Shown here: positions 1 through 16,076 of the stretch, in pieces
How the letters are laid out: every line of letters begins with the position of its first letter
Numbering within the stretch: the stretch's first letter is position 1
From: a virus
Lineage: Duplodnaviria > Heunggongvirae > Uroviricota > Caudoviricetes
DNA length: 20,058 nt
Strand: one strand, 5' to 3'
IMG/VR virus record: IMGVR_UViG_2617270985_000008
Program-made: the position numbers and the translations under genes
The notes under the pieces: model-generated
The model's database searches: none
Told to the model about the DNA's origin: nothing
The model's input: the letters and a program-made list of their open reading frames with translations, nothing else

Positions 1-549
1 ATGCAATTTAATATCCCTACGTTGCTTACACTGTTCCGTGTCATCCTTATCCCATTCTTTGTATTGGTCTTTTATCTGCCTGTCACCTGGTCGCCGTTTG
101 CCGCCGCGCTCATTTTCTGCGTCGCGGCGGTGACTGACTGGTTCGATGGTTTTCTGGCACGCCGCTGGAACCAGAGTACCCGGTTTGGTGCTTTCCTTGA
201 CCCTGTCGCAGATAAAGTTCTCGTGGCTATCGCCATGGTGCTGGTAACCGAGCATTATCACAGCTGGTGGGTGACCTTACCGGCGGCAACGATGATCGCC
301 CGTGAAATTATTATTTCTGCGCTACGCGAATGGATGGCGGAGTTGGGTAAACGCAGTAGCGTGGCTGTCTCCTGGATTGGGAAAGTGAAAACCACGGCCC
401 AGATGGTGGCGTTGGCCTGGCTGCTGTGGCGTCCGAACATTTGGGTTGAGTACGCCGGTATTGCACTTTTCTTTGTGGCTGCGGTACTGACTCTGTGGTC
501 AATGTTGCAATATTTGAGCGCTGCGCGTGCAGATTTGCTTGATCAGTGA
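1..549 (+). CDS. pgsA: CDP-diacylglycerol--glycerol-3-phosphate 3-phosphatidyltransferase (phosphatidylglycerophosphate synthase)
   Basis: Complete 182-aa ORF with TGA at 547-549; translation ([20 protein letters not shown]...[25 protein letters not shown]...) recognised as E. coli PgsA, including the CDP-alcohol phosphatidyltransferase motif. Confidence 0.96.
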
Positions 550-599
550 TCGTTTCGGCGCAATTTTCAGCAAACGATCAAAAGTGGTGAAAAATATCG

Positions 600-627
600 T
601 TGACTCATCGCGCCAGGTAAGTAGAAT
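600..627 (+). promoter_or_regulatory. Sigma70-type promoter of the tRNA operon (TTGACT, 16-nt spacer, TAGAAT)
   Basis: TTGACT at 600-605 and TAGAAT at 622-627, about 70 bp upstream of the first tRNA, followed by a GC-rich stretch. Confidence 0.5.
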
Positions 628-700
628 GCAACGCATCGAACGGCGGCACTGATTGCCAGACGATAATAAAATCAAGTGATTAACTGATTGCTTGATGAAT

Positions 701-776
<76 letters not shown>

Positions 777-830
777 GTTTAAAAGACATCGGCGTCAAGC
801 GGATGTCTGGCTGAAAGGCCTGAAGAATTT

Positions 831-904
831 GGCGCGTTAACAAAGCGGTTATGTAGCGGATTGCAAATCCGTCTAGTCCGGTTCGACTCCGGAACGCGCC
901 TCCA
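831..904 (+). tRNA. cysT: tRNA-Cys (anticodon GCA)
   Basis: 74-nt sequence GGCGCGTTAACAAAGCGGTTATGTAGCGGATTGCAAATCCG...GGAACGCGCCTCCA; anticodon loop TTGCAAA. Confidence 0.95.
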
Positions 905-916
905 CTTTCTTCCCGA

Positions 917-1003
917 GCCCGGATGGTGGAATCGGTAGACACAAGGGATTTAAAATCCCTCGGCGTTCGCGCTGTGCGGGTTCAAGTCCCGCTCCGGGTA
1001 CCA
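917..1003 (+). tRNA. leuZ: tRNA-Leu (anticodon TAA), long variable arm
   Basis: 87-nt sequence GCCCGGATGGTGGAATCGGTAGACACAAGGGATTTAAAATCCC...GTCCCGCTCCGGGTACCA; class II tRNA with extra arm. Confidence 0.95.
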
Positions 1004-1045
1004 TGGGAAAGATAAGAATAAAATCAAAGCAATAAGCAGTGTCGT

Positions 1046-1078
1046 GAAACCACCTTCGGGGGGGTTTTTTTTATTTTT
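1046..1078 (+). terminator. Rho-independent terminator of the tRNA operon
   Basis: GC-rich imperfect hairpin (AAACCACC TTCG GGGGGG) followed by a T8 run and further T tracts. Confidence 0.5.
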
Positions 1079-1541
1079 ATTTTTTGCTATGGCGGGGGAG
1101 GGGCGGTGGTGTGGCGATATGCAGAAACAATGGTAGTGCACGTGCTGTTTAAACTCTAAGGATGAAGCAGAATTCTTCTGCAGCTCCTCCGTATTTCGCA
1201 TAGTGAACCAGGACCTCTGTTAAACAAAAATTTTTCTGGGATTTTTTCACTCGACTTCATTTTTCCTCCTGCAATCCACCAACAGGTACCTGCGCTAATC
1301 TATCTTTTTAATCTGACAACATCTTGGGAAAAGGCAAATTCGTCAGATTTACTGTTTTTCTGCTGCCTCGAATGCCGATGTCTGAAGCACTGATAAGAGT
1401 TCTATCTCTTTGATATAGATCTTTTTTTTGATGAATTGCACGACATATTATCGTTATGACACCTTCTTGTTAAAGGTATTGTACTCCTCATCTCGATTTT
1501 ATGATGTGGGCTATGATTGGTTAGTAATAGAGTGTATCGGT

Positions 1542-1823
1542 ATGCGATGTGGTTTATTAATGGCAATCTGCCTTTGTTTAGTATCTTTTAGTGGATATGC
1601 AGCAACAGGAAAGTCTGATGCTCAGATCAAAAAAGAAATAATTAAAGAATCCATTGAATCTTATCCAGGCAATTGTGCGTGTCCTTATAATCATGCAAGG
1701 AATGGTAGTAGATGTGGTGGACGCAGTGCATATAGCCGTAATGGAGGGTATGACGTGGTATGTTATGAGGGTGATGTTACCGATGAAATGATCCGGCAAT
1801 GGAAGCAGGAGAATGCTGAGTAA
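1542..1823 (+). CDS. Small secreted Cys-rich hypothetical protein (signal peptide)
   Basis: ORF-track frame 1428..1823; the likely start is ATG 1542 giving MRCGLLMAICLCLVSFSGYA-ATGKSD..., a hydrophobic signal peptide with a probable cleavage site. The mature part has 5 Cys (PGNCACPYNHARNGSRCGGRSAY...VVCY). AT-rich. Function not recognised. Confidence 0.5.
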   Translation: MRCGLLMAICLCLVSFSGYAATGKSDAQIKKEIIKESIESYPGNCACPYNHARNGSRCGGRSAYSRNGGYDVVCYEGDVTDEMIRQWKQENAE

Positions 1824-1899
1824 TCTCTTTTAACAGGTTTGTTGTGCGAGCATTATGTGCCGTTAACGGTACACTAGCTAGTGATTGTTCCAAAAAGAA

Positions 1900-1925
1900 A
1901 ACCCGCAGTTCTTACGCTGCGGGTT
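1900..1925. terminator. Bidirectional hairpin terminator between the convergent secreted-protein and hok-like genes
   Basis: Perfect stem AACCCGCAG / CTGCGGGTT with 8-nt loop; A-run upstream on the + strand (T-run on the - strand) and T-rich downstream. Confidence 0.45.
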
Positions 1926-2011
1926 TGTTGTTCATGTCTGTGAGATAGGGTGCCACTTCAGCCAACCTTAGCAACCGATTGACGGGGGATTGCTCCCCCG
2001 TCGCGGTTTCC

Positions 2012-2152
2012 TTACTGCTTACACTGTAAGAACGCCGCAAACTCCGCTCCCCAGAAGCTCATCCGTATTTCACACAGCGAACCGTGTAGCATCCAGATGA
2101 TGAGGATTACCGTCACGCAGAACGTGATGGCTGTAAGCGATTTTTGCGACAT
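2012..2152 (-). CDS. Hok/Gef-family type I toxin (small membrane peptide), 46 aa
   Basis: Not in the ORF track (under 60 aa). Translation MSQKSLTAITFCVTVILIIWMLHGSLCEIRMSFWGAEFAAFLQCKQ has the Hok/Gef hallmarks: N-terminal TM helix, SLCEIR motif and E(V/F)AAF motif. SD AAGGAG lies 8 nt upstream of the ATG. A perfect 8-bp hairpin (GACGGGGG/CCCCCGTC, 1981-2002) follows the stop, and the upstream leader is GC-rich and structured. Confidence 0.6.
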   Translation of the reverse strand: MSQKSLTAITFCVTVILIIWMLHGSLCEIRMSFWGAEFAAFLQCKQ

Positions 2153-2342
2153 AGCGCTTGCTCCTTTGTTGGAGAGGCGCTAACCTATCACTTGCTTAAG
2201 GTAGATATGTTAGGGCCTCGGTTAAACAGAAATGTTTTCCGGGGCCTTTCCACATCCGGCCTTCGGGTATTCCTCCGACCATCAGCCGAAAGGCACCCGC
2301 GGGTAATCTATCGTTTTTTTGTTACTCCGGCAATTCTGCCTG

Positions 2343-2603
2343 TTAATTCTGAGGTAAAGGCAAACTCATCTGATTGTTTCCCCTGTGTGAAGCTGGCAGC
2401 TCATGCCACGGGATACCTTCCGAAGAGTGAACGCCGGAGGCGTGTTTTGATGTGAATTTATGGAAAGCTTCCAGTGTTGAGAAGCATACGCCGCATTCCA
2501 GGTTGTTACACTGGTAATACTTTTGCCGCACAGTGTTTGAATCGTTTTCCGGACGACTGGTGCGGATTCGGGCAGATGCGCCACAAAGCGGACAACGGAA
2601 CAT
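2343..2603 (-). CDS. ogr: Ogr/Delta-family zinc-finger late-gene transcriptional activator
   Basis: N-terminus MFRCPLCGASARIRTSR...YYQCNNLECGVCF matches the P2 Ogr Cys4 zinc-finger pattern (MFHCPLC...ARTSR...YHQC.N..C). Strong SD GGGAGG 5 nt before the ATG. Confidence 0.85.
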   Translation of the reverse strand: MFRCPLCGASARIRTSRPENDSNTVRQKYYQCNNLECGVCFSTLEAFHKFTSKHASGVHSSEGIPWHELPASHRGNNQMSLPLPQN

Positions 2604-2892
2604 AGCGACCTCCCTTAACGTGGTGCTGCCGCTATTCTAAGTTGTAATAGCTCAGACTCCAACTGACAGTTTGCGCAGCCAGAATACAATCAAACCTAGC
2701 GGTACGCTTTGTGCGAAGAGCGGAAGTTCGCAACTCCAACAACTTTGATAACCTCCGCATAAATGGAAATCGGTTGCTTACATAAGTTTATTGGCTGAGG
2801 TGCATATCGGGAAGCAAGCGGGCAGTGCCATCTTATCTGTTACAATCCCGAAATGATTGTTCAGCCCGCTTTTTCTAACAGCATGTAAACAT

Positions 2893-4032
2893 TCAGCTGC
2901 AAATTTCGTTGTTGCTGCATGTTATCTCTTCAAGTGCAGCGGCGTTATAATCAACGGAATGATCAACCTGTGATGTAGGTCTGCCAAAAAATTCAACCCC
3001 TGACATAATCATGTTGCCGATATTCTCTCGCTGTTTATCACTGAGCCTGTCCCACCACTCAGGGGATGAATATGTATTTTCGGCCTTTGTGAAGAAAAAA
3101 TACAGAAGGGTATTGAACATCCTGTTAGCTGGGATCTTAATTAGTGTCCGTATAAAACGTCTGATAATTGTTGAAGTTCTCAGCCAACTGAACACTACAT
3201 ATCCCTTACCTCCGCAGGAAAAAGCATTGAAACATACTTGTTCCGCCGACACTGTAAGATCGCTCAAATCCTGAATTTTGGTCCCATCGAAATCCCTCTC
3301 CGGTGAAAGAATTGACGAAACTACAATTGGTAAAGGCTCTGCAAAAGTGAAGATAACACTTTCAATTTCTGAAAATTGCCTGCTAAGTAGGATGCGGTCG
3401 AGGCTAGTTTTAAGATTATTTAATTCAATTATTGCTGCATTTAAGCCACTTTGGTGCTGGTCGATTAATTTCTGAATATAATACTGTTCAACTTGTAGCT
3501 TTCCTTTATCGGCATTTTTAGCAAAATCAGAAGATAGCACTCCCCCTTCTTTGGCATAAATTTCTTTAGACAATGAACGAAACATTAAGGCAAAGCACTG
3601 CTCGTCCGTGCCTGTAAATTTTTCGTTCTCTAGGCATGAAAATAAGATTCTGTCATGAACTGCACAAAATCCTGTAAAAGTGGATGCCTGATTGATACCG
3701 ATCTTCTCGGGAAGCCATTTTCCGTTGTTTCTCATCAGGCTTGCTAAGTTCATTATCACCCCCATGACGTGATTGCTGGAGTCGGCGATCGCCTTAAGGC
3801 TACTGCTCTTAGATATCGTATGCGCCTGAACGATGCGTTTATCACAATCTTCGTGCATGGATGCTGGCGCATAACATGCCTTTCTCTGCGAGAGAGACTT
3901 TGAAAATTTCAGTGCCTCGGCTTTGGATACCGGAGTTTCACGATCTCGACCAAGATGGCACTTTTTATACTTAAGTCCTGAATTACACCAGCACTTATCA
4001 TTTCTTCCTAATTTCACTTTATTGTTTCCCAC
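2893..4032 (-). CDS. Hypothetical protein with N-terminal SEC-C zinc-binding motif (prophage cargo)
   Basis: 379-aa ORF in a markedly AT-rich segment between D and ogr. The N-terminus KLGRNDKCWCNSGLKYKKCH resembles the SecA C-terminal SEC-C metal-binding motif. No Walker A or other catalytic motif recognised. Start is GTG at 4032 (or GTG at 4017); no in-frame ATG before the motif. Confidence 0.7.
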   Translation of the reverse strand: MGNNKVKLGRNDKCWCNSGLKYKKCHLGRDRETPVSKAEALKFSKSLSQRKACYAPASMHEDCDKRIVQAHTISKSSSLKAIADSSNHVMGVIMNLASLMRNNGKWLPEKIGINQASTFTGFCAVHDRILFSCLENEKFTGTDEQCFALMFRSLSKEIYAKEGGVLSSDFAKNADKGKLQVEQYYIQKLIDQHQSGLNAAIIELNNLKTSLDRILLSRQFSEIESVIFTFAEPLPIVVSSILSPERDFDGTKIQDLSDLTVSAEQVCFNAFSCGGKGYVVFSWLRTSTIIRRFIRTLIKIPANRMFNTLLYFFFTKAENTYSSPEWWDRLSDKQRENIGNMIMSGVEFFGRPTSQVDHSVDYNAAALEEITCSNNEICS

Positions 4033-4431
4033 GAAATTAATGTTCTATAACAAAAACACTTATCGAAAATAGGTGTAATTTATCACTCCGGCAGCTAAAA
4101 GATCATCTGCCACATGCACGATAATAAATCTTCCTTGCGTCATCATCTCCCTCTGTTCTTAAATCAGGTGTTGCCTGTGTGCGGAGGATTCGCGAAGTAC
4201 AGTAGCCGAAATGCATGATCTTACCCATCAATGGTGAGCACGCGATAATAAGTGAGTCCCTAATTGACCACTCATGGCAATACAACTTCAACCAGCATTC
4301 ATGACCACTATCCGTGGATTAACTGTTACATAAGCAACACCTGCTCTAGGCACAAAGCGGGCTGCCAGATTGGGTCTGGCACTGTGCTGTGAGTGTGTCA
4401 GTTCTGGTTTGAGTCAATACATCTAATTTGC

Positions 4432-5532
4432 TCATTCTGTTTCTGCTATCCATTCCGGGATTTTTGCTTCAAGCTCAAGCTGTGTGGTAAAGCCGCTGTT
4501 ATCAATGGTGTGCTCGGCTTTTGCAATAATCCAGTCCTGATTATCGATGTCACTTTTGAAGCCTGTCACCGTGCCATGCATTTCGGGATAGAGTTCTGCG
4601 CGTCCACGCGCCAGCGTGATGGAGAATGATGCGGCTCCGCGTTGTAGCTGCTGCCACTTTGCCGCCGCTGCACGTCTTGCTGCCTGCTCGTTCTGATAAG
4701 TCTTGCGTAACACAAACACGTTGCCTTCCGCACCTTCCATATAGTCACCTTCACGGCTGCTGCTTTTCTCCTTTTTCGGTTTGCGGCGTTTCACGCTGAC
4801 TTTTTTCTTTTTCCCGTAATTAAGATCAAGCCAGTAAGCACGTACCCCCGTATACGCTTCGCGGTCAGCAATGCGGAACTGATGGCGATCGCCACTGCTG
4901 CGCGTGATGGCGAACGATGGCAACGGCTGGCCCTGTGCGTTCACGCCACCGCCTGGCATGATGAATAACAGATTACTGCTTTTTACCGTAGTGATTGCGC
5001 CCAGCATTTCCGCCATGCGCGTAAGGAAGGACATGTCGCTTTCTTCGGTCTGGTCGGCGTGGTCGATTTCAATATCCATCAGCATTTCGCTGATTTGTGG
5101 TTTCAGACCGTACCGATGAGCGATGGCGGATACCACGCGCTCAACGGTCACATCATGCCAGGACACCTCACGTTTAACGTTAAATTCATCCCGAAAATCT
5201 GCGCTTCTGGCTGAAACAGTCAGCCTGTCCGGCGGTCCTTCGTGAGCGATTTCATCAACAATGTAAGTGCCTTTTTCTGTCAGCGGTTCTCCTTTCCAGC
5301 CAATGAGAACCGTCAGGCGCGCGCCCCGTGGCGGTAGCTGCAACTGACCATCCGCATCATCCAGCGTGATGGTGAGCAGGTCCGCTTCAAATCCCCGGTT
5401 GTCGGTCAGTGACAGGCTCATCAGGCGCTCTGCCACGCCGGACAGTGTTTCCCCCTCCGCGAGAATATCAAAATCCGGCATTTTCACGGGGTCTGTGCTC
5501 TGACTGAGCAATTGCATGGTGGTATCGGTCAT
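4432..5532 (-). CDS. D: P2 gpD-like tail protein (late control gene D family)
   Basis: Translation (…SLSLTDNRGFEADLLTITLDDADGQ…SARSADFR…SDGDRHQFRIADREAYTGV…EGDYMEGAEGNVF…NSGFTTQLELE) matches phage gpD. Start chosen at ATG 5532 (MTDTTMQLL…) because of a strong GGGAGG SD; the longer track ORF to 5664 adds a low-complexity extension with no RBS. Confidence 0.85.
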   Translation of the reverse strand: MTDTTMQLLSQSTDPVKMPDFDILAEGETLSGVAERLMSLSLTDNRGFEADLLTITLDDADGQLQLPPRGARLTVLIGWKGEPLTEKGTYIVDEIAHEGPPDRLTVSARSADFRDEFNVKREVSWHDVTVERVVSAIAHRYGLKPQISEMLMDIEIDHADQTEESDMSFLTRMAEMLGAITTVKSSNLLFIMPGGGVNAQGQPLPSFAITRSSGDRHQFRIADREAYTGVRAYWLDLNYGKKKKVSVKRRKPKKEKSSSREGDYMEGAEGNVFVLRKTYQNEQAARRAAAAKWQQLQRGAASFSITLARGRAELYPEMHGTVTGFKSDIDNQDWIIAKAEHTIDNSGFTTQLELEAKIPEWIAETE

Positions 5533-5689
5533 CTGTTCCCTCCCTGTGCGGCATGGTCGCATGTGCGTGCATAGGGGGTTACTGCTTTTTGTTGTCGCCG
5601 TGGCGGGAGAACGGCGCAGGGGTGAGATTACGCGCGTGGTGGGTGATGATTGTTGCCGAATCATTTAACGGATACAAGGGGCTGAAGCT

Positions 5690-6874
5690 ATGAGTGAAAC
5701 TCGTTTTCATGGTGCCCGTGTTACGGAAAGTACCGACCTGGTAACAGCGATTAATGATGTTGATTCCAGTGTTATCGGTATCGTGGCAACGGCGGATGAT
5801 GCGGACGCGGAGCTGTTCCCGCTGAACAAGCCCACACTGCTGACCCGCGTCAATGACGTGCTGGGAAAATGCGGGACTACGGGGACGCTTTATCGTGCGC
5901 TTAAGGCTATTGCAGACCAGGTGAGCACAAAAGTGATCGTCGTTCGCGTGGCTGAACACAAAGAAGAAGGCGGTAAGACGCAGGATCAACTGGTTATCGG
6001 TGGTTCTGAATCTGACGGCAGCTATACGGGGATGTATGCGCTGCTTGTTGCAGAGCAGGATGAAAGCATCGGATACCGTCCGCGTATTCTGGCCGCGCCG
6101 GAGCTGGACACGGAGGCGGTGACAAAATCCCTGTGCGTGATTGCGGGTAAACTGCGCGCGTTTGTGTATGCCTCATGTCATGACTGTAACACGATGGCTG
6201 AGGCAATTACCTACCGCCAGAAATTCAACGAACGTGAGGTGATGCTCTTATGGCCGGACTTCATCGCCTACAACCCGAAAAGTGGCAAAAACGAAACGTT
6301 CCCCGCGCCTGCCTATGCGTGCGGCCTTCGTGCGTACATTGACCATGAGCAGGGCTGGCACAAATCGCTGTCCAACGTTCCTGTTAAAAATGTGCTGGGG
6401 ATGTCCAGGCATGTTTTCTGGTCGTTGCAGGCCGAAGACAGTGATGCCAACAGCCTCAACAACAAAGAAATCACGACCATTATTCGTCGCAACGGGGTCC
6501 GCTTCTGGGGCAACCGCACACCGGAAACGAACGCCTACATCTTTGAGGTGTATACCCGAACCGCACAGGTGCTGGCTGATTCAATTGCGGAAGCGCAGTT
6601 TGAAACCATCGACAGTCCACTGACGCCTGCGAACGTGAAGGATGTTATCAGTGCCATCAGGGCAAAACTGGATTCGCTGGTTACTGCCGGGAAACTGATT
6701 GGCGCGGAGTGCTGGTATGACGTGGTGGATAACAGCACCACGGATTTACGTCAGGGGCGTGTGCGTATTCGCTACAAATATACGCCCGTTCCGCCACTGG
6801 AAGACATGGAGCTTTACCAGACGTTTACTGATGAATACTTTGAACCCGCATTTGCGGTGCTGGGAGGTGCCTGA
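5690..6874 (+). CDS. FI: Contractile tail sheath protein (P2 FI-like)
   Basis: 394 aa; motifs FPLNKP, LRAF.Y, QGWHKSLSNV, FWGNRT, YTPVPPLE are typical of P2 FI sheath. SD AAGGGG upstream. Confidence 0.9.
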   Translation: MSETRFHGARVTESTDLVTAINDVDSSVIGIVATADDADAELFPLNKPTLLTRVNDVLGKCGTTGTLYRALKAIADQVSTKVIVVRVAEHKEEGGKTQDQLVIGGSESDGSYTGMYALLVAEQDESIGYRPRILAAPELDTEAVTKSLCVIAGKLRAFVYASCHDCNTMAEAITYRQKFNEREVMLLWPDFIAYNPKSGKNETFPAPAYACGLRAYIDHEQGWHKSLSNVPVKNVLGMSRHVFWSLQAEDSDANSLNNKEITTIIRRNGVRFWGNRTPETNAYIFEVYTRTAQVLADSIAEAQFETIDSPLTPANVKDVISAIRAKLDSLVTAGKLIGAECWYDVVDNSTTDLRQGRVRIRYKYTPVPPLEDMELYQTFTDEYFEPAFAVLGGA

Positions 6875-7386
6875 TGGCTGTACCAAAACATCTTCGCTTT
6901 TTTACGCTGTTTGTGGATGGTGAAAACGAAGTGGGTAAGGTGACGTCCGTCACTCTGCCTAAGCTGACGCGCAAAACCGACAGCTACCGGGGTGGTGGCA
7001 TGATGGGTGCGGTAAGTATTGATCTCGGTCTGGACGACTCCGCGCTTGATGCGAGCTTTGTCATGGGGGGCGCAGTTCGTGAGCTGTTCCTTAAGTATGG
7101 CGGCACGATTGACGGCACGCTGCTGCGTTTTGCGGGTGAATATTACACCGATGCAGAAAGCGACCTGTATGAAGTCGAAATGCGCGGACGTGTGACGGAA
7201 ATTGATATGGGGGAAGCCAAACAGGGCGAAGCCACATCACACACTTACGCCATTAAAAACACCTACTACAAGCTGAGTGTTAACGATCGCCCGTTGTGGG
7301 AGATTGACCTGCTGAACTTCATTTACCGGAAGGACGGCAAGGACATTGTGCCCGATCGCATCCGTTCCGCGCTCGGGCTTGGCTGA
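6874..7386 (+). CDS. FII: Tail tube protein (P2 FII-like)
   Basis: 170 aa, start overlaps the FI stop (TGATG). Size, position after the sheath gene and sequence fit gpFII. Confidence 0.88.
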   Translation: MAVPKHLRFFTLFVDGENEVGKVTSVTLPKLTRKTDSYRGGGMMGAVSIDLGLDDSALDASFVMGGAVRELFLKYGGTIDGTLLRFAGEYYTDAESDLYEVEMRGRVTEIDMGEAKQGEATSHTYAIKNTYYKLSVNDRPLWEIDLLNFIYRKDGKDIVPDRIRSALGLG

Positions 7387-7440
7387 TAAGTAATATGCAG
7401 GCGGCGCAGTGCGTCGCCTCTGACTGAAAGGAGTTTCCTG

Positions 7441-7806
7441 ATGAAAGAGACGAAAAACATCGATACCGAAAACACGGTAGTTGCTGACACTGTGAAAGAA
7501 ACCAGTGAGCGTGGTGTAAAACTTACCCAACCAATTGAGCGAGGCGGCGAAAAAATCACGTATGTGGAGATCACCGGGGCTATTGAGCAGGCTGGATCTC
7601 TGCGAGATTTGTCGCTGTCTGATGTGCTGAATCTGAAAGCGGAATCCATGTTTACGCTGCTGTCACGCGTGACATCACCGCGACTGGATGAAGTGACGAT
7701 CAAAAAAATGGCATCCCGTGACTTTATTCAGTTATGTGTGGTTGCCGTAAATTTTTTGAGCGGTGCGGACTCTGGCGGGAAGAACGAACAGGCGACGGAA
7801 GCCTGA
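7441..7806 (+). CDS. E: Tail assembly chaperone gpE (zero-frame product)
   Basis: 121-aa ORF with AAGGAG SD, immediately upstream of the tape measure; contains slippery heptamer T_TTT_TTG at 7752-7758. Confidence 0.8.
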   Translation: MKETKNIDTENTVVADTVKETSERGVKLTQPIERGGEKITYVEITGAIEQAGSLRDLSLSDVLNLKAESMFTLLSRVTSPRLDEVTIKKMASRDFIQLCVVAVNFLSGADSGGKNEQATEA

Positions 7807-7970
7807 TCACGGTTGTGTGCTTTGAGCACATAGAAGACTTTGTGGCAGATATTGCCGTTATTTTTAACTGGTCGCCCGCCGAAATCTTCATGATGACGCC
7901 CGGCGAAGTGGTTAGCTGGCGTGAGCGGGCGGCACTTCGCAGCGGGAATGCAGACAATGAAGACTCTTGA
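7441..7970 (+). CDS. Tail assembly chaperone gpE+E' (programmed -1 frameshift fusion)
   Basis: The -1 frame stays open from the slippery site (7752-7758) to TGA at 7968-7970 (the track ORF 7734..7970 is this frame), giving the E+E' extension that ends where T begins, as in P2 (analogous to lambda G/GT). Confidence 0.65.
7752..7758 (+). other. Slippery heptanucleotide T_TTT_TTG for -1 ribosomal frameshift
   Basis: Sequence aaTTTTTTGag inside E, in the correct phase (X XXY YYZ) for the E frame. Confidence 0.65.
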
Positions 7971-10764
7971 TATCCGGGTCGCTTTCAGCGCCGTTGACAG
8001 GCTGACCCGGCCTGCCGAAAACGCCCGCCGCCTGATGGGGCAGTTTGGTGACTCCATCCAGCGAACGCAGGGGGCGATTAAAAATCTCGAGCGTCAGGCT
8101 CGTTCATTTGAGCGCGCCCGCGACGCTGTCAGTAAAGCGGATGCGGGTATCGTGAAAGCACGACGCCAGCTTAACGCCCTTAATCAGTTACAACGCACGG
8201 GTACAGTGCTCAGCGAAAAACAACAAAAGCTGATGCAGCAGTTAAGCACCCGGCTTGAACGCCTGAATGAATCGCGCACACGGGAAATTCAGAAAATGCG
8301 GGAGCTTGGCGGAGAGCTGAAACGCCACGGCATTTCCCTGACAGGCAGCGATAACACCATCCAGCAGGCCATCAGACGCACCGAACAGTACAACAACCAG
8401 CTTGAACGCGAACGGCAGGCGCTTGCGCGTGTAACGCGGGCGCGTGAGTGGTATTCGCGCGCGCAGGAAACCGCGGGAAAACTGAAAACAGGTGGTGCGC
8501 TGGCAATTGGTGCGGCAGCGGCGGGCGGCTATGCTGCCGGGCGTTTTTTGCAGCCCGCGATCGGGTTCGGCAAAGAGATGTCCCGCGTTCAGGCGCTGAC
8601 GCGAATCGACCAGAACAGCCCGCAGTTTAAGGCGCTGCGTGAGCAGGCGTTAAAACTTGGCTCTGAAACGCAGTTCACCGCAGGCGATGCCGCCAGTGGG
8701 CAGGCATTTCTTGCAATGGCAGGCTTCACACCGCAGGCCATTCAGGCTGCGCTTCCCGGAGTGCTGAGCATGGCAACGGCTGGCGGTATGGATCTCGGCG
8801 AGACGGCAGATATTGGCTCAAATATCCTGACGCAGTTCGGCCTTTCTGCTGACCAGATGGACCGGGTCGGTGACACACTCACCGCAGCGTTTACCCGTAC
8901 CAACACTGACCTTCGCGCACTGGGCGAAACCATGAAATATGCAGGTCCGGTGGCGGGTAAGCTGGGAATATCGCTGGAGCAGGCCGCAGCGATGGCTGGT
9001 GTGCTGGCGAATATGGGCATCAGAGGGAGTGATGCCGGGACGGCAATGCGTGCCAGCCTGGCTCGTCTGGCATCACCGCCAAAGGCGGCGGCAGAAGCTC
9101 TGAAAGAGCTGGGCGTGTCCGTCTCGGATGCCGGGGGTAAAATGCGCCCGATGGAGGATGTGCTGGCCGACCTTTATAAAGCCACCCGCAAATACGGGGA
9201 AGTTGACCGGGTATCGTTCTTTAAGGACATTGCCGGAGAAGAGGCTTTCACATCGTTTATGGCGCTCGTTGATGCAGTGGGTGACGGTTCCTTACCCAAA
9301 CTGAGAAAAGAACTTGAAGGCGCGCGCGGTGAGGCTGAACGCACAGCAAAGGTTATGGCCAACAACCTTGACGGCGATCTGAAATCACTCGGCAGTGCAT
9401 GGGAAGGGTTGCGCATCCGCATTGCAGATCTGATTGACGGTCCGCTGCGTTCTGTCACGCAGTGGCTCACGCGGGTGGTATCAAGGGTGACGGCGCTGGC
9501 GCAGGCCCATCCGGCACTGACGCGCCAGCTACTGATAGCAGGCGGTGCGTTGCTGGCAATGACTGCAACGGTTGGCTCGTTGTCGCTGGCTATTGGTGTG
9601 CTTGCTGGTCCGCTGGCAAAACTGCGTCTTGGTTTTTCTCTCCTGACCGGATCAATGAATGCTGTCAGGGTCCTGCCAGCACTATGGGGAATGGTGACGG
9701 GTTCCGTTTCTTTACTGGGAGGCGCTATCGGGGCGCTGTTCAGTCCGGTTGGTCTTATCGTGGCTGCGCTTGCCGGAGCTGCCGTCCTTATCTGGAAATA
9801 CTGGGATCCCATCAGGGCATTTTTTGCCGGGGTGTTCAGCGGGATTATGGAAAGGCTGAACCCGTTGCGTGAAACCTTTGAACGGTTTGGCCCTGTTTTT
9901 GACGCAATCGGAAGCGGGATCAGCCAGGTGTTTAACTGGTTTAAATCGCTGCTGTCACCGATGGAGTCCAGCAAGGAAACGCTGGATAAATGTACCAGTG
10001 CTGGCGAGATATTCGGTAACGTTCTTGGCGGTGCGTTACAACTTGTTCTGACACCTGCAAAAATGCTACTGGATACGCTGGCGTGGATACTTGAAAAACT
10101 TGGCGTCCTTCCGGATGAAGCGGAAAGGGCGCGCAAGAAAATCGAAGACGCACAGCGTGCGGCCATTCTTCAGGATAAGGTTGCCTTACTTCAGGGGGAC
10201 CTGGCGAAAATCAATCCGCCGAAGCCTGTGGAAAATGGCAATGGCACCGGAGGTGATAAACCCAAAGACAACAAACCGCTCACAGACAGCAATACCGGGA
10301 CGCTACGCAGACTCAGCAAAATTGCTGATAACACAGGTAAGCTGGTTGATGAGACGAAAAAACGCATTGGCCCTGGCGATATTGTCTTTAAGAACCTGCC
10401 CCGCGCACTTGCTGTTCGTGGGGAGTGGCAGGAGCGGAAGATTGCGCAGGTCAGTAAGCCTGCCCCCGCAATTAATATCACACCCGTAGTCCCGGCTCCG
10501 CTGCCTCCGGCGCTGGTCCCTGTTGTTGCGGCCAGCTCCCGCCCGGTGGCGGAGGCCATACGATCGCCAGTGGCATCAGTTCCTGCAGCTTCCCGTAATC
10601 GGGAGCCTGCTGTCTCCAGATTTGGCGGTGAAATTCATGTTCATCTGCATAACGTTGTTACGCAGAATCCCCGCGAACTGGCGAAACTGGTCGGTGAAAT
10701 GGTCAGGGCAGAAATGGAACGGCGCGCCCGTGCCGGGCGTGGCAGTTTTTACGATAAAGATTGA
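7921..10764 (+). CDS. T: Tail tape measure protein (P2 gpT-like)
   Basis: 947-aa ORF, coiled-coil-rich N-terminal half, hydrophobic Gly/Ala-rich central segments, Pro-rich C-terminus; located between E/E' and U. Track start is GTG 7921; the true start is more likely ATG 7948 or 7957. Confidence 0.85.
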   Translation: MSGRHFAAGMQTMKTLDIRVAFSAVDRLTRPAENARRLMGQFGDSIQRTQGAIKNLERQARSFERARDAVSKADAGIVKARRQLNALNQLQRTGTVLSEKQQKLMQQLSTRLERLNESRTREIQKMRELGGELKRHGISLTGSDNTIQQAIRRTEQYNNQLERERQALARVTRAREWYSRAQETAGKLKTGGALAIGAAAAGGYAAGRFLQPAIGFGKEMSRVQALTRIDQNSPQFKALREQALKLGSETQFTAGDAASGQAFLAMAGFTPQAIQAALPGVLSMATAGGMDLGETADIGSNILTQFGLSADQMDRVGDTLTAAFTRTNTDLRALGETMKYAGPVAGKLGISLEQAAAMAGVLANMGIRGSDAGTAMRASLARLASPPKAAAEALKELGVSVSDAGGKMRPMEDVLADLYKATRKYGEVDRVSFFKDIAGEEAFTSFMALVDAVGDGSLPKLRKELEGARGEAERTAKVMANNLDGDLKSLGSAWEGLRIRIADLIDGPLRSVTQWLTRVVSRVTALAQAHPALTRQLLIAGGALLAMTATVGSLSLAIGVLAGPLAKLRLGFSLLTGSMNAVRVLPALWGMVTGSVSLLGGAIGALFSPVGLIVAALAGAAVLIWKYWDPIRAFFAGVFSGIMERLNPLRETFERFGPVFDAIGSGISQVFNWFKSLLSPMESSKETLDKCTSAGEIFGNVLGGALQLVLTPAKMLLDTLAWILEKLGVLPDEAERARKKIEDAQRAAILQDKVALLQGDLAKINPPKPVENGNGTGGDKPKDNKPLTDSNTGTLRRLSKIADNTGKLVDETKKRIGPGDIVFKNLPRALAVRGEWQERKIAQVSKPAPAINITPVVPAPLPPALVPVVAASSRPVAEAIRSPVASVPAASRNREPAVSRFGGEIHVHLHNVVTQNPRELAKLVGEMVRAEMERRARAGRGSFYDKD

Positions 10765-10770
10765 GGAGTC

Positions 10771-11265
10771 ATGGCCATGATGATGATCTATGGCATGTTT
10801 GTTTTTGAGCTGCGCACGCTGCCGCATCAGCAGTTACAGCAAAACAAAAGCTGGCGGCATGTGAAAAATGAACGCGTTAACCGTTCAGCAAGCTGGCAGT
10901 ATATCGGTGCAGGTGATGATCGCATCGTTCTTTCTGGTGTGCTTTATCCTGAAATTACAGGTGGCGAAGTGTCGCTGTCTCTGCTGACCACGCAGGCGTA
11001 TACAGGACGGCCCTGGCCTCTGATTGATGGCGTCGGGCAGATTTACGGCATGTATGTCCTGACCGAAACGAATACGACCCGCTCCGAGTTTGATCGCTAC
11101 GGTAAGGCGAAAAAGATAGAATTTTCACTGACTCTTGAACGCTGTGATGAGGATTTGCGGGAGCGCCTGCAATCCTCATCGTTCAGCGATATGTTGTCCG
11201 GCTTCAAAGATAAGGTGACATCATCCCTTAATAGCGCGACCAGCTCAGTTAAGGGGCTGCTCTGA
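10771..11265 (+). CDS. U: Tail protein gpU-like
   Basis: 164 aa; TLPHQQLQQNKSWRH…LSGVLYPEITGGEVSL…WPLIDG…RSEFDRYGKAKKIEFSLTLE resembles P2 gpU. Several ATGs at 10771-10785, so the exact start is uncertain. Confidence 0.8.
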   Translation: MAMMMIYGMFVFELRTLPHQQLQQNKSWRHVKNERVNRSASWQYIGAGDDRIVLSGVLYPEITGGEVSLSLLTTQAYTGRPWPLIDGVGQIYGMYVLTETNTTRSEFDRYGKAKKIEFSLTLERCDEDLRERLQSSSFSDMLSGFKDKVTSSLNSATSSVKGLL

Positions 11266-11341
11266 TTTAACGTATGTCGCCAATTTCCTGATGAAGGTGA
11301 CTGGCGACTTGCTGTTGTATGTCCTTCTCAGAAAATTGTTT

Positions 11342-11370
11342 TTGAATAACAAACAACAGGATTTTATAAT
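11342..11370 (+). promoter_or_regulatory. Near-consensus sigma70 promoter (TTGAAT, 17-nt spacer, TATAAT) driving the acetyltransferase
   Basis: TTGAAT at 11342-11347 and TATAAT at 11365-11370; a second TATAAT at 11381-11386. About 50 nt upstream of the AAGGAG SD. Confidence 0.5.
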
Positions 11371-11421
11371 CTCTTAACCTTATAATATGTGTGGTCTGAA
11401 ATAATAATTAAGGAGATTATC

Positions 11422-11994
11422 GTGCTGTCTTACTTAATGGCAATTCACTTTGTTTTATTTGGGGACTCTACTAATTTAAAAAACTTCTGGAAATATGAAG
11501 TAATTCGGCGGAAACGTATGGATATCTGGAGGCTTTTAAGAGAGAAAAAACAGCGTAACCGGAATTTCCTTTTCTGGTGGCGGTTGGCTAACGAAATGTA
11601 TATTAATGGTAATAAATTACATAAGAAAGCAGCCAAAAAGTTAAACAGTAAAATAATTAACAAATTTGGTTGTGAAATTGGATTGGGCGCAAATATTGGA
11701 AAAGGGTTAACAATTCCCCATCATGCTGGAATTGTTGTTCATTTTGCTGTTGATGCTGGTGAAAATCTGGTGTTACGACAGAATACTACCATTGGACAGA
11801 TAGATGGTGACATGCCTGGTTCAAGAGTAAAAATTGGTAGTAACGTTGATATCGGAGCTAATTGTTGCATCATTGGATTATCACGTAAAATTGGGGATAA
11901 TGTAAAAATAGGTGCAATGTCTTTTATAAATAAAGATATACCATCGAACTGCACATATATAACTAAAAAGAGCGGTGTTGTATTGTATAAATAG
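11422..11994 (+). CDS. Hexapeptide-repeat (left-handed beta-helix) acetyltransferase, serine acetyltransferase/WcaB-like
   Basis: AT-rich ORF; C-terminal half has hexapeptide repeats (IGANIGKGLTIPHHAGIVV…IGSNVDIGANCCIIG…IGDNVKIGAMSFI). Start set at GTG 11422 with AAGGAG 6 nt upstream; the track ORF begins at 11389 without an RBS. Confidence 0.8.
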   Translation: MLSYLMAIHFVLFGDSTNLKNFWKYEVIRRKRMDIWRLLREKKQRNRNFLFWWRLANEMYINGNKLHKKAAKKLNSKIINKFGCEIGLGANIGKGLTIPHHAGIVVHFAVDAGENLVLRQNTTIGQIDGDMPGSRVKIGSNVDIGANCCIIGLSRKIGDNVKIGAMSFINKDIPSNCTYITKKSGVVLYK

Positions 11995-12002
11995 AGTACA
12001 TA

Positions 12003-12030
12003 AAGCCATCTATATTTCAATCGATGGCTT
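12003..12030. terminator. Bidirectional hairpin terminator between the acetyltransferase and the tail-fibre assembly gene
   Basis: 8-bp perfect stem AAGCCATC / GATGGCTT with 12-nt loop, flanked by AAA on the left and TTTTCTCTTT on the right. Confidence 0.5.
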
Positions 12031-12037
12031 TTTCTCT

Positions 12038-12616
12038 TTATTGTGGGGCGACTGGCCACTCAACATCCGCTGCTACCGCTGTATTAACACGATTCAACAA
12101 TACCCGGTATGTCTTCCATGCAGCCAGTAACGATGCCTCTTCCTCCGTTGCAATATCCAAATCTACGGCATCCTGAAGTGGCGCAATATGCTCGCTGGCT
12201 ACCTGCATCAGGCTGTTTTTTGTTTCTTCCGCCTCCCTTATCCGAAACAGTTTTTCTGCTTCTGCATCTTTCACCCAGGATGTGCCGTTCCACTTCTGAT
12301 ACTCTCCATACGGCGACAACCAGGTAACATTTTCCGGTAATGGACCGAGTTCAGAAATAAATAACGAGTCCCCTGATGCCACGTCATAAACCGTTTTACC
12401 CCGATGGTCTTCAACGAGATGCCACGATGCCTCATCACTGTTGAAAACGGCCACGAAGCCAGCCGGAATATCTGGCGGGGCAATATCGGTACTGTTTGCA
12501 GGCAGACCTGTATGAGGTGGAATGTATGCATCACCTTCACCAATAAACTCATTGGTTCCGGTCAGTAGATTATAAATTTTTATGGTCCGTGAGTGTTCAC
12601 TCATTCTGAATGTCAT
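12038..12616 (-). CDS. G: Tail fibre assembly protein (P2 gpG / Tfa family)
   Basis: 192 aa directly downstream of the tail-fibre gene; C-terminus (…[35 protein letters not shown]) is the conserved Tfa signature. Alternative start ATG 12604. Confidence 0.8.
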
Positions 12617-12653
12617 TATGCAAGCCTCACAATATAGTTAAATGCGATGTTTT

Positions 12654-13976
12654 TTACGGTGTTTTCTTCGTTAACTCCAGACCTGTGGCCCCCTGCATAT
12701 TATCTGTCAGGGCGGTCAGCCGACCTTTTGAAGCCAGATTAACTGACGATACTGCTGTCCCATCTGACGGTAACGCCCCGATCTCTGATGCTGTTGGCTT
12801 ATTCCTGGAGTTATAGTCCCTTCGCCAGCCAGGAGCATAAGCATCACCATGATTAATATAAGTAAATTGAGCATTAGGGATGCCTTCACCGCTGGATGTA
12901 CTCGGTGTGGTAATGCGTATGGTCATTGCGCCGCGGGTGCCAATAACTTCCACAACAGCACCTGCAAGACAAATACTTCCGCAACCTGTATCTGTAATGA
13001 CCTTATTATTTGCATAAGCCCATGAGCCTTTGCACATCCAGTAAGGATGGTTAAATGCCCCCTGACTCTCTAGCCAAAAAATCAACTGCGCAGTTGTCCA
13101 TGCTTCACTATCTCCACCAATATTCAGCTCTGCACTATATGCACGGCAGGCACCGATATTTTTCGTAAAGGTGTCTTTATCAGAGATATCCTCACCATTC
13201 TTAGCTTTCTGCAGACGTTTTTCAGCATTGTCATAGGCAGCTTTTACTGCATTTGATGTTGCCGCCAGCGTTTCAGATGTACTGTTGGTTGCACTACTAA
13301 GCTGGACAAGGCCTTTTCGCGCTGTTGTGGCATCCTGCGCTGTATATTTTCCGTTAGCAAGATCATACGCGACCTTAACCGCTTTCGGCGTTGCAGCCAG
13401 CGTTTCAGAATCGCTGTTAGTGGCGCTACTGAGTTGAACAAAGCCTTTTGCGGTCAGCGAGGCATCCGGGTGACATCGTGACTGTTCATGCTCTTTCAGT
13501 TTGTTATCCACGTAATCCACTGTGGCCATCACCATGGTGTTATCCACGGTAAGCGCCACAGTGGCAGTGCTGGATACGGTCAGAATGGTGCGAAATGTTT
13601 GTGCACGTCCGGACCCTTCGGCAACGGCTGGCTTGTAACTTTCGGCAGTATTGCCCACCGCGATTAAATCGCCGTGCTCATCAAACACACCAATTTCCCG
13701 GATCCAGAATCCGCCCGTTTCTGGAGGAATAACCAGCTCCGCAATAATGCGGTTCTGATGTGTTGCGTCCAGGATGACGCGATTAACAGTGTGTCGCCAC
13801 ACCTCATGCACCAGACGGGTCTGCTTACTGTCTGGTGTGGGCAACGCGCCGCCACCGTCGCCCACGGCCATATGAGTCAGGCGGACAGGCTTACCATCTG
13901 GCGCGGCTGCCTGAGCTAATTTTTTGGCACCTGTATCGGTGATAACGGTTTTAAATTTTCGTGTTGTGGTACTCAT
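12654..13976 (-). CDS. H: Tail fibre protein (P2 gpH-like)
   Basis: 440 aa; conserved gpH N-terminal domain (…VRLTHMAVGDGGG…RLVHEVWRH…AELVIPPETGGFWIREIG…ESYKP…) and duplicated QLSSATNS.SETLAAT motif; divergent C-terminal domain. Confidence 0.88.
   Translation of the reverse strand: MSTTTRKFKTVITDTGAKKLAQAAAPDGKPVRLTHMAVGDGGGALPTPDSKQTRLVHEVWRHTVNRVILDATHQNRIIAELVIPPETGGFWIREIGVFDEHGDLIAVGNTAESYKPAVAEGSGRAQTFRTILTVSSTATVALTVDNTMVMATVDYVDNKLKEHEQSRCHPDASLTAKGFVQLSSATNSDSETLAATPKAVKVAYDLANGKYTAQDATTARKGLVQLSSATNSTSETLAATSNAVKAAYDNAEKRLQKAKNGEDISDKDTFTKNIGACRAYSAELNIGGDSEAWTTAQLIFWLESQGAFNHPYWMCKGSWAYANNKVITDTGCGSICLAGAVVEVIGTRGAMTIRITTPSTSSGEGIPNAQFTYINHGDAYAPGWRRDYNSRNKPTASEIGALPSDGTAVSSVNLASKGRLTALTDNMQGATGLELTKKTP
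13230..13445 (-). repeat. Intragenic tandem repeat in the tail-fibre gene (two copies, 132-nt period)
   Basis: Peptide repeats GFVQLSSATNSDSETLAATPKAVKVAYD (aa 178-205) and GLVQLSSATNSTSETLAATSNAVKAAYD (aa 222-249); the DNA copies are visibly similar. Confidence 0.6.
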
Positions 13977-13978
13977 GC

Positions 13979-14509
13979 TTAATCGTCCGGATAAATGGTA
14001 ATAACTTCACCGTCATGAGTTGCCGCCGCTGCAAAAATATCCCCCGGAATTTCCTGAATGATATTCAGCCCTGTCATGTGGCGGCTGACCGGACGGGCAT
14101 CAGCAATCAACCGCTCCATTTCCAGATACATTTCCTCCGTCACGCCACTGTCCAGTGTGCCGACTTCAACGGTAAATGTTCCCGGTTCTCCGCCGAACTC
14201 CCACCACTCAGACACGCGAATGAGGTATCCCAGCGGCTCAATGGCCCTGCGCAGTGCGCTGATGGTCCCTTTGTGTCGGTGTATCAGCCATGCATCACGA
14301 ATCACCTGTCGTTTTGTCTCTTCCGGCCAGTTGCGATCCCAGCGGTCAACGGAAAATGCCCAGGCGAGATAAGGCAGCAGGTGCACCGGGCAGGTGTCCG
14401 GCGACCACAGCGTGTTGAGGTCTACCGGGATGTCTGTAATGCGCGTTCCGACAGCTTCGGCACAACGCATGAAACTGCTGGCTGATGGTGGTAACAGTGA
14501 ATTACTCAT
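13979..14509 (-). CDS. I: Baseplate protein gpI-like
   Basis: 176 aa from ATG 14509 (MSNSLLPP…), overlapping the J stop in an ATGAGTAA arrangement; motifs WSPDTCP..LLPYLAWAFSVDRWD…GYLI…EWWE…PGTF…EMERLIADA…SRH match gpI. The track ORF starts 11 codons earlier. Confidence 0.85.
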   Translation of the reverse strand: MSNSLLPPSASSFMRCAEAVGTRITDIPVDLNTLWSPDTCPVHLLPYLAWAFSVDRWDRNWPEETKRQVIRDAWLIHRHKGTISALRRAIEPLGYLIRVSEWWEFGGEPGTFTVEVGTLDSGVTEEMYLEMERLIADARPVSRHMTGLNIIQEIPGDIFAAAATHDGEVITIYPDD

Positions 14510-15257
14510 TGCGCCCACCTTCGCTGATGGTGAACGACTCACAGCGCGCCGCCTGTATGTCGCTGATGGCCATATTCTGTGTGGGTTCGATTATCTCCAC
14601 GCGTTGCACACCGTGCACATGCAGTGCGGCAGCAATGGCGGACAACGCCACGTCCTGACCGATAAGCCCCTGCTCAGCCAGCCACTTCCTGAACGACGAT
14701 TCAGCCGCCGCCAGAATAGGTTCGGATTCCGGGCCGGGGTAAAAGTACAGTTTTGCATTCAGCCGCCATGTCACGATTCTGGCGCTCTGTACCGTCAGGC
14801 GGTCGGCCACCGGGCGGGTATCCTCTGCATTCAGAACGGCGCGAACGGTATTAAGCAACGCCTCCGTTGCTGTGCCGTCGCCTTCAGTGGACAGGATGGA
14901 AACCGTCACATTTGCCGGAGACGGACTGATAGCCCGCGCATCACGCACCAGACCGCTGGCGCTGCGGGCAAAATACTCGTATGCACCTGACGGGCCAGCA
15001 ACACTCAGGCCATCGTACGCCCGCTGCGCCCGCAGTCTCAGCGAGGTGTCACTTTCCATCACTGCGTCGGTGGTATCCGTTGCCGGAGTGATGGTCAGGC
15101 GCTTTGTGTTCATATTGCCCGCGAGGTTGTCCAGGTCTGTCCCGGCGCTGTGGCTTAACATGCAGGCGCGTGCCCCCTCATTGACCCGCTGGCGTAACGA
15201 GCGTTTCACGGTTATGGAGTTCTGATGAGCAGAAAAAATAAAAAAGTGCGCATGAGT
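14502..15257 (-). pseudogene. J: Baseplate assembly protein gpJ, 5'-truncated remnant
   Basis: Translation (…RQRVNEGARA…MESDTSLRLRAQRAYDGLSVAG…RPVADRLTVQSA…YFYPGPESEPI…HVHGVQRVE…) matches roughly the C-terminal 220 aa of gpJ. Homology stops near 15210-15250, where the opposite-strand Q start abuts; about 85 N-terminal codons are missing. Confidence 0.75.
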
Positions 15258-15959
15258 TCACGCATTGATCTCGCTGATGCGCTCAGGAAAGAATCATCGC
15301 TCAGTGCATTCACATTTGATGGTCCTTATCGCCTGACCGGGCATGACCTGCTGGACAATATGTACTGTGCTGATAACGGGCGGTGGTATGAAACCCCGGT
15401 GGACTGGTACGGTCTGGCAAGAGCCGCCCGGCAAACGTCCTGGCATCAGTCTGCGCTTTACTTTAAGCGCAATGTATTGCTCGGTTGCTACATCCCGCAC
15501 CCGCTGCTTTCCCGGCAGGATTTCTCGGCGCTGGCGCTGGACTGGTTTGTGTTCGGTAACGCATTCCTTGAGCTTCGAAGCAATATGCTCGGCGAACCGC
15601 TTAAATTACGGCACGCCCTGGCGAAATACATGCGACGCGGAAGCGATCTTGAATCATGGTGGTATGTGCAGGATGGCAAGGATGCGTTTCAGTTTCGCCC
15701 AGGCAAAGTGTGCCACCTGATGAATCCGGACATTAACCAGGAAATCTACGGCATGCCGGAATATCTCGGCGCATTACTCTCGGCCAGCCTGTCTCATTCG
15801 GCGGACATGTTCAGAAAACTGTATTACGACAACGGATCCCACGCCGGGTGCATCATCTACATCGGTGCAGCGCAGGTAAACCGCGAAAGCATGGACTCCC
15901 TGAAAGAAACGCTACAGGGTGCGCGTGGTGGTGGTGCGTTTCACGTCCTCTGGAGGTGA
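15225..15959 (+). pseudogene. Q: Portal protein gpQ, 3'-truncated remnant
   Basis: 244-aa ORF with portal motifs (…NGRWYE…YFKRNVL…IPHPLLS.QDF…FGNAFLE…DINQEIYGMPEYL…YYDNGSHAG…) corresponding to roughly the N-terminal 70% of a P2-type portal; ends in unrelated sequence. Confidence 0.75.
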
Positions 15960-16076
15960 AACGAACGACAGGAAAATGCTTAATTGCCATTACGCCTCCT
16001 TGGTGTGTGTGAATACCTCTGCGAATGCAGATTGTGTTCACATTTTTTTATTTAAGCTGGGGTTTTATTTATGCGG

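Follow-up and report, generated by a model that had tools for sequence, protein, structure and literature searches.

Cargo gene between tail gene D and ogr

The window considered here is the whole 20,058-nucleotide stretch of IMG/VR virus record IMGVR_UViG_2617270985_000008, which carries a P2-related prophage of E. coli. Between its tail gene D and ogr, the gene of the late transcription activator, lies a single open reading frame (ORF) for a 379-residue protein with an N-terminal SEC-C zinc knuckle (coordinates in Table 1). On sequence comparison this cargo protein is a distant homologue of Rugutis, a lactococcal phage-resistance protein, and its gene appears to be the passenger of a mobile insertion cassette that lacks a transposase. 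A sequence-only reading of the window had described the ORF, with a GTG start and no clear Shine-Dalgarno sequence, and an AT-rich insert of about 1.8 kb; both are indeed present. The gap between D and ogr measures 1,828 bp, and the GC content is 0.36–0.46 over approximately positions 2700–4350, compared to 0.50–0.57 in both flanks.

The GTG codon at 4032 is preceded by TTAATTTC and is kept in homologues of 85–86% identity from Pantoea, Salmonella and another E. coli island. An in-frame GTG at 4017 would give the family-consensus start MKLGRN, but this codon is GAG in one homologue, and therefore 4032 is the likelier start. The SEC-C motif, which the sequence-only reading had allowed might not be translated, is translated from either start. 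The divergence of the 5' leader (Table 1) is about that of third codon positions (75–76% identity), whereas first and second codon positions are 92–93% identical, indicating that the protein is under purifying selection and that the leader is without extra constraint. Two candidate features of the 400-bp leader were rejected, namely a small ORF (62 residues, 4103–4291), which is broken by indels among the homologues, and a regulatory RNA, for which there was no credible Rfam match and conservation only at the level of third codon positions. At least about 150 nt of the 3' trailer accompanies the SEC-C gene where it occurs elsewhere. All 20 genomes among the matches listed have an intact ORF, with 99.9–100% identity. 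In E. coli O111:H11 strains 88.0502 and 88-19539, an ISVsa5 (IS4-like) insertion interrupts the region of the SEC-C cassette.

Relationship to Rugutis

A tblastn search of plasmids with the cargo protein yielded Lactococcus plasmids at an E-value of 4e-27, including pUCCL633A of strain UCCL633. This plasmid encodes a 359-residue "SEC-C domain-containing protein" (WP_137016746.1) that fits the published Rugutis gene (pUCCL633_059) in strain, plasmid series, length and motif. The two proteins can be aligned by BLASTP over residues 5–347 and 3–336, respectively (E-value 2e-37, 26% identity), and by hhalign over 327 columns (probability 100%, E-value 1.7e-39). Judging from these alignments, the cargo protein is a distant, collinear, full-length homologue of Rugutis, and the similarity goes beyond a shared motif. 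Each is the product of a single gene (379 and 359 residues) with an N-terminal SEC-C motif, is collinear with the other over about 330 residues, keeps a C...C...(A/S)H...FCxxHD...E...R...EN signature, has a confident AlphaFold2 fold without a neighbour in the PDB, and is carried on mobile DNA. The cargo protein differs in being found in a Gram-negative host and in a prophage cassette, whereas Rugutis resides on a lactococcal plasmid. The last SEC-C ligand is a histidine in the cargo protein and a cysteine in Rugutis, and Rugutis does not share H88, an invariant residue of the gammaproteobacterial clade.

Rugutis acts as a single gene, after injection of the phage DNA, and has an abortive-infection phenotype; it protects at a low multiplicity of infection, and cultures collapse or stall at a high one (Grafakou et al. 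2024; PMC11381338). Mutants of phage c2 that escape Rugutis carry changes within the large terminase TerL's ATPase domain, and c2 TerL is toxic only when Rugutis is present; mutated TerL is still toxic on co-expression (Mosterd et al. 2025; PMC12184496). The proposal of the sequence-only reading that the gene possibly encodes an uncharacterized single-gene anti-phage factor is therefore supported by the homology with Rugutis, but the family is not wholly uncharacterized, since protection by Rugutis was shown in 2024 and its link to the large terminase in 2025.

Domain content

The SEC-C knuckle is recognized by Pfam (Table 1) and also matches structures of the SecA metal-binding domain (1ozb, E-value 6.6e-8), in agreement with the sequence-only reading, which had named it and had seen no other signature. 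Searches of Pfam, PADLOC, NCBIfam and PHROGs gave no match of the cargo protein beyond this motif, and the few matches obtained all lie on it. The silence of PADLOC follows from the absence of Rugutis from both the PADLOC and the DefenseFinder databases, as stated in a 2026 paper (as of July 2026).

The RefSeq name of the cargo protein, "YecA family protein", is on its domain content a misnomer that rests on the SEC-C motif only. The YecA-type NCBIfam model (221 positions) is matched weakly and only at positions 197–220, which align to residues 4–27, and the YecA architecture, an N-terminal UPF0149 domain combined with a C-terminal SEC-C motif, is not found, as Pfam gives SEC-C alone. The C-terminal metal-binding domain of SecA, YecA and YchJ have a zinc knuckle of about 20 residues (CxC...C(H/C), PF02810) in common with the cargo protein and share nothing else with it; moreover, the knuckle is N-terminal in the cargo protein and dispensable in some relatives. 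Kinship with DUF4238 or with HNH/His-Me-finger proteins, which the motifs AHTISKSSSL and FCxxHD had suggested, was dropped in the absence of any Pfam or PADLOC hit; for DUF4238, a single-gene defence system of the P2 hotspot described by Rousset et al., there was no match in either database at E-values up to 1. Nor was there a structural match in support of such kinship, and the predicted secondary structure is not beta-beta-alpha.

Family, predicted fold and conserved core

A word-indexed search identified 296 relatives, nearly all of 366–387 residues and with an N-terminal SEC-C motif, in hosts including Enterobacterales, Aeromonas, Psychrobacter, Pseudoalteromonas, Pseudomonas and Halomonas. 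An exhaustive profile search retrieved 7,719 cluster representatives at an E-value of at most 1e-3 and 1,494 at an E-value of at most 1e-30; the best 150 family representatives are almost all about 370 residues long and have a single uniform architecture. Relatives without SEC-C or any other Pfam match occur on plasmids of Klebsiella (pKPN5, 380 residues, L020:2992–4134), Priestia (341 residues, L021:2519–3544) and Bradyrhizobium (331 residues, L022:2408–3403), which implies that the family is wider than the "SEC-C proteins" and that the knuckle is optional. The more distant homologues stand alone, each among other neighbouring genes, and are not members of conserved housekeeping operons, the arrangement that the sequence-only reading had named as evidence against its proposal. 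Also, the cargo gene is solitary in every context examined, without a partner gene. Among 50,697 phage records a relative is encoded in two, the unannotated records of Listeria phages LM 4-11-1 and LM 4-14-1, with 29% identity over residues 2–284.

The AlphaFold2 model of the cargo protein, calculated from an alignment of 35 sequences, is confident (predicted local distance difference test 88, predicted template-modelling score 0.87). The zinc knuckle is followed by a mixed alpha/beta region (about residues 50–135), a long helical hairpin (143–217), a four-stranded sheet (223–284) and a helical C-terminal part. Fold searches with this model found no neighbour in the PDB and no match among the viral folds of BFVD.

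An alignment of Rugutis, gammaproteobacterial members and the relatives lacking SEC-C contains 16 invariant positions: C53, C63, H71, L79, G112, T118, F122, C123, H126, D127, F131, E135, R152, E157, D247 and E318. A second zinc site, of structural nature, is probably made up of C53, C63, C123 and H126, and candidates for a catalytic or switch role are H71, D127, E135, R152, E157, D247 and E318. This invariant core, which is kept even in proteins without SEC-C, is likely to be the business end of the protein, and one may speculate that it harbours a zinc-dependent hydrolytic effector. The SEC-C knuckle is an optional N-terminal add-on, which perhaps tethers the protein to the ribosome, SecB, nucleic acid or some other anionic partner.

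A cassette with inverted ends

The insert proper spans positions 2643–4421 (1,779 bp) and is bounded by imperfect inverted ends of about 90 bp each (Table 1). Each end consists of a TG-initiated terminus (TGTAtTAGCTCAgA...CTGAC), a spacer and a hairpin CCGCT-N10-AGCGG, and the terminal inverted repeats are confirmed by inverted pairs of 29 nt and 36 nt between the two ends. With an nhmmer model built from 13 ends, inverted pairs are recovered from the window and from no fewer than nine other loci, and they surround single passengers in unrelated places (Table 1); the end family (TGTATTAGCTCAGA...CTGAC plus hairpin) is also present at loci L015–L019. When 5,426 complete E. coli genomes were surveyed, one end sequence had matches in 2,050 of them, with as many as four in a single genome and all in unannotated DNA. 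Flanking 7-bp repeats, with 5–7 of the 7 positions identical, were found at six independent sites, i.e. the P88-like D–ogr junction, L009, L024, L025, L036 and, weakly, L028; the calculated chance of a match of at least 6/7 at any single site is about 0.001. A matching empty site with a single copy of the target is seen in L014 and in phage P88; for the TolA-C insertion in the lambdoid prophage, the flanks are too mosaic to yield another empty site.

No transposase is encoded between any inspected pair of ends, and no partner transposase was found. The SEC-C protein itself was rejected as the transposase of the cassette, as the same ends enclose many unrelated passengers. The ends could not be matched to any named insertion sequence (IS) family, and the literature yielded only the general concept of mobile insertion cassettes. 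These cassettes, and cargo-bearing elements resembling miniature inverted-repeat transposable elements, share with the insert the terminal inverted repeats, the target duplication, one or more passenger genes, the lack of a transposase and the empty site, whereas the combination of terminus, hairpin and 7-bp duplication described above fits no named IS family. By its anatomy the insert looks like a transposase-less and presumably mobile insertion cassette.

Hairpin-only versions of the end motif delimit consecutive cassettes in Pantoea (L010, 5662–11363) with the SEC-C gene, a gene for a 332-residue protein and a DUF6602 gene, and bracket a two-gene unit with the SEC-C-less relative on Klebsiella pKPN5 (L020, 1605–4384). 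Such hairpins may be nothing more than terminators, or they may be ends that have decayed. A promoter-like site (CTGACA, 16 nt, TACAAT; 2663–2690, plus strand) lies inside the left end, pointing inward and antisense to the SEC-C gene. Since the TIR, DUF2971, HEPN-like and DUF3800 cargo genes (see below) lie on that strand, the cassette ends may supply an inward promoter.

The D–ogr junction as a hotspot

D and/or ogr of this prophage lineage were matched in 1,468 of the surveyed genomes. A sample taken from them at even spacing has the junction most often empty, with a span of 1,543–1,545 bp and only 42 bp from the D stop to the ogr ATG; phage P88 has a D-to-ogr span of the same empty length (about 1.54 kb). 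The sequence-only reading had assumed a P2-type adjacency of D and ogr, which holds for the empty form of the lineage, but the closest phages are P88/Xuanwuvirus and not P2. Six alternative single-gene cargos were counted at the junction (Table 1), the SEC-C cassette being the most frequent. They may reflect repeated insertion at a preferred target or exchange of cargo by recombination within shared ends. Both the variable region and the horizontal acquisition suggested by the sequence-only reading are thereby borne out, the latter by the sporadic occurrence of the SEC-C gene (80/5,426 genomes at D–ogr) and by copies of 85–86% identity in unrelated islands. A Salmonella homologue of 86% identity (L008, 11548–13194) is located on an integrase/AlpA/DUF927-primase island with adjoining AAA_21 and DUF4435 genes (PARIS-type), a further one shares an E. 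coli island with H-NS-like and AlpA genes, and another belongs to a Pantoea chromosomal array.

At the D–ogr junction, P88-like phages have a hotspot of defence type that is not the published one at old/tin. The latter, located between gpA and portal in P2-like phages (Rousset et al. 2022), follows the same logic of interchangeable, mostly single-gene cargos at a fixed position; it differs from the D–ogr hotspot in position, and at D–ogr the cargo lies in an inverted-end cassette with a target duplication. The main texts of Rousset et al. 2022 and of a 2026 preprint (10.64898/2026.02.27.708500) mention neither ogr, gpD nor SEC-C.

The host prophage

The prophage in the window is an internally deleted, defective P88-like (Xuanwuvirus), P2-related prophage at leuZ, and not P2 proper. 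Following pgsA and three tRNA genes, it is entered from its ogr end. As far as position 12673, the window and E. coli O103 RM8385 agree at 99.9% identity. Relative to RM8385, tail-fibre gene H has a 765-bp deletion. Baseplate gene J is truncated at 15210, next to a portal fragment (both in the region 12668–15225). The part following this fragment (15225–20058) contains genes for a DUF4761 protein, a helix-turn-helix protein, a DUF2511 protein and an integrase, the last of which runs off the end of the window. The reading frame of D is open up to 5664, with its stop at 4432. Unlike in P2, the tail genes FI to U do not share the strand of D and ogr (2343–5664). An inversion peculiar to the present remnant was rejected, as the same hok-ogr-[cargo]-D / FI layout is found in every other inspected prophage of the lineage; the inversion is therefore a trait of the lineage and not a local rearrangement. 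The acetyltransferase gene downstream of U represents a second moron position of the late region, without flanking cassette ends.

Table 1. Features of the window, other loci with paired cassette ends, and cargos counted at the D–ogr junction
Feature	Position	Strand	Remarks
pgsA	1–549		window start
tRNA-Gly, tRNA-Cys, tRNA-Leu	701–1003		3' of pgsA, followed by the prophage
Small ORF	1428–1823	+	phrog_27544 (E 1.5e-57); between tRNA-Leu and ogr, AT-rich prophage edge
Hok/Gef-family toxin gene	2012–2152	-	between tRNA-Leu and ogr, AT-rich prophage edge
ogr	2343–2603	-	late transcription activator; left neighbour of insert; Pfam Ogr_Delta E 5e-14; RefSeq annotation in RM8385
Left 7-bp target duplication	2636–2642		TCTAAGT; single copy in empty site L014, two around every cargo variant
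Left (ogr-proximal) inverted end	2643–2732	+	terminal TGTAATAGCTCAGACTCCAACTGACAG; hairpin 2704–2723; nhmmer E 3e-18
3' trailer of cargo gene	2733–2892	-	blastn matches to the copies in Salmonella (L008) and in an E. coli island (L009)
Cargo gene, 379-residue Rugutis-family protein (by sequence comparison)	2893–4032	-	WP_001317900.1; GTG start; same orientation as D and ogr
SEC-C zinc knuckle, residues 10–27	3952–4005	-	GRNDKCWCNSGLKYKKCH; Pfam PF02810 E 2e-8; 34.4 bits, cut-off 20.4
5' leader	4033–4360	-	about 330 nt, moves with gene; 73–75% identity to Pantoea and Salmonella copies
Right (D-proximal) inverted end	4330–4421	-	terminal TGTATTGACTCAAACCAGAACTGACAC; degenerate hairpin 4341–4360; nhmmer E 2e-19
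Right 7-bp target duplication	4422–4428		TCTAATT; 6/7 identical to left copy
Tail gene D	4432–5532	-	right neighbour of insert; Pfam Phage_GPD E 1e-17; RefSeq annotation
Tail genes FI, FII, E, E', T, U	5690–11265	+	
Hexapeptide-repeat acetyltransferase	11389–11994	+	annotated serine O-acetyltransferase; between tail gene U and tail-fibre assembly gene
Paired ends, E. coli island	L009		passenger: SEC-C homologue
Paired ends, KpLE1-like prophage beside integrase	L024		passenger: 868-residue HNH endonuclease
Paired ends, lambdoid prophage upstream of lysis genes	L025		passenger: TolA-C-domain protein
Paired ends, island beside Ag43 adhesin and GTPase gene	L026		passenger: DUF2971 protein
Paired ends, Enterobacter	L028		passenger: DHFR-like protein
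Paired ends, Proteus prophage	L029		passenger: TetR and EamA
Paired ends, Buttiauxella	L035		passenger: two GNAT acetyltransferases
Paired ends, Yersinia	L036		passenger: 530-bp mini-element
SEC-C / Rugutis-like cargo	D–ogr		379 residues; 80/5,426 genomes
HEPN(RiboL-PSP)-like cargo	D–ogr		340 residues; 65/5,426 genomes
PIN_4 cargo	D–ogr		500 residues; 59/5,426 genomes
DUF3800 cargo	D–ogr		389 residues; 36/5,426 genomes
DUF2971 cargo	D–ogr		261 residues; 16/5,426 genomes; PADLOC PDC-S31; domain of lactococcal Aristaios
TIR / bSEFIR cargo	D–ogr		304 residues; 5/5,426 genomes

Proposed function and alternative explanations

We consider it probable that the cargo gene encodes a single-protein, abortive-infection-type defence protein of the Rugutis family, carried as the passenger of the 1,779-bp transposase-less cassette between D and ogr of the defective P88-like prophage at leuZ. 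By analogy with Rugutis, the protein would be made constitutively but in small amounts, under its own leader with a GTG start and a weak ribosome-binding site, and would be inert in uninfected cells. Late in infection it would be activated by a late product of a heterologous phage, for which the large terminase, through its ATPase domain, is the likeliest candidate, and the activated protein would then arrest or kill the cell before progeny are released. Since intact carrier prophages, such as that of RM8385, themselves code for a terminase, the TerL of the resident phage is predicted not to trigger the sensor.

Several points weigh against this interpretation. No effector chemistry can be assigned to the cargo protein, and scanning of its leader gave no convincing sigma-70 promoter. 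The identity with Rugutis is only 26%, the anti-phage phenotype has been measured for the lactococcal protein alone, and the toxicity of mutated c2 TerL leaves the trigger model of Rugutis itself incomplete. The same ends carry non-defence passengers (DHFR-like protein, GNAT acetyltransferases, TetR and EamA), so that the type of cassette alone does not imply defence. Finally, the gene could be a passive leftover, since the host prophage is a deletion remnant.

Alternatively, the gene could be a moron unrelated to defence, co-transcribed with D and ogr and serving, for example, lysogenic conversion, host fitness or the late functions of the prophage itself. Its position in the late region, in the orientation of D and ogr, would fit such a role, as would the metabolic or regulatory passengers that cassettes with the same ends can carry. 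We regard this as unlikely, however, because the cargo protein is homologous over its full length to one for which an anti-phage phenotype has been demonstrated, and because the gene is missing from most prophages of the lineage and from all phage records except the two of Listeria phages, while close copies are found outside any phage.

Similarly improbable is a selfish gene of the toxin or addiction type, or an inert passenger, kept by the persistence of the cassette and the grounded prophage without benefit to this strain. The internal deletion of the prophage, the GTG start with its weak ribosome-binding site and the absence of detectable extra constraint on the leader are in line with such a passenger. 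Against it stand the intact and nearly invariant ORF in the 20 listed genomes, the strong constraint on protein positions (92–93% compared to 75% at third codon positions), and a family that is large and uniform in length.

A housekeeping role in the secretion or ribosome-associated machinery, as a YecA-like or SecA-related protein in line with the RefSeq name, is hardly credible and effectively refuted by the domain content, since the SEC-C motif is real and weak YecA-type matches exist in NCBIfam, but the match is limited to a motif of about 20 residues that is N- and not C-terminal, no UPF0149 domain is present, the distribution is sporadic and mobile, and relatives without SEC-C exist.

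Implications

On its sequence, the cargo gene is best filed in the Rugutis family, as a new, Gram-negative member borne by a prophage. This links a misannotated gene of an E. coli prophage to a defence family validated by experiment, which in turn extends from lactococcal plasmids to prophages of Gram-negative bacteria and becomes testable in the best host for phage genetics. The carrying cassette is a more novel lead than the cargo gene. Its anatomy suggests a route by which defence genes without mobility functions of their own could move between hotspots, and the mode of such movement between P2 and P4 hotspots was explicitly left open by the 2026 preprint (10.64898/2026.02.27.708500).

A bolder proposal, which we put forward tentatively and consider rather doubtful as a whole, is that of an undescribed family of transposase-less cassettes that shuttles single accessory genes, many of them for defence, across the hotspots of Enterobacterales, and whose passenger here would be an abortive-infection protein that senses terminase and has a novel effector fold dependent on zinc. 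Such a cassette family would be characterized by TG...CA termini, an inverted repeat of about 27 nt, a subterminal CCGCT-N10-AGCGG hairpin and a 7-bp duplication, and the hotspots visited may include those of prophages, islands and plasmids. If true, it would provide a concrete mechanism for the rapid turnover of cargo at defence hotspots.

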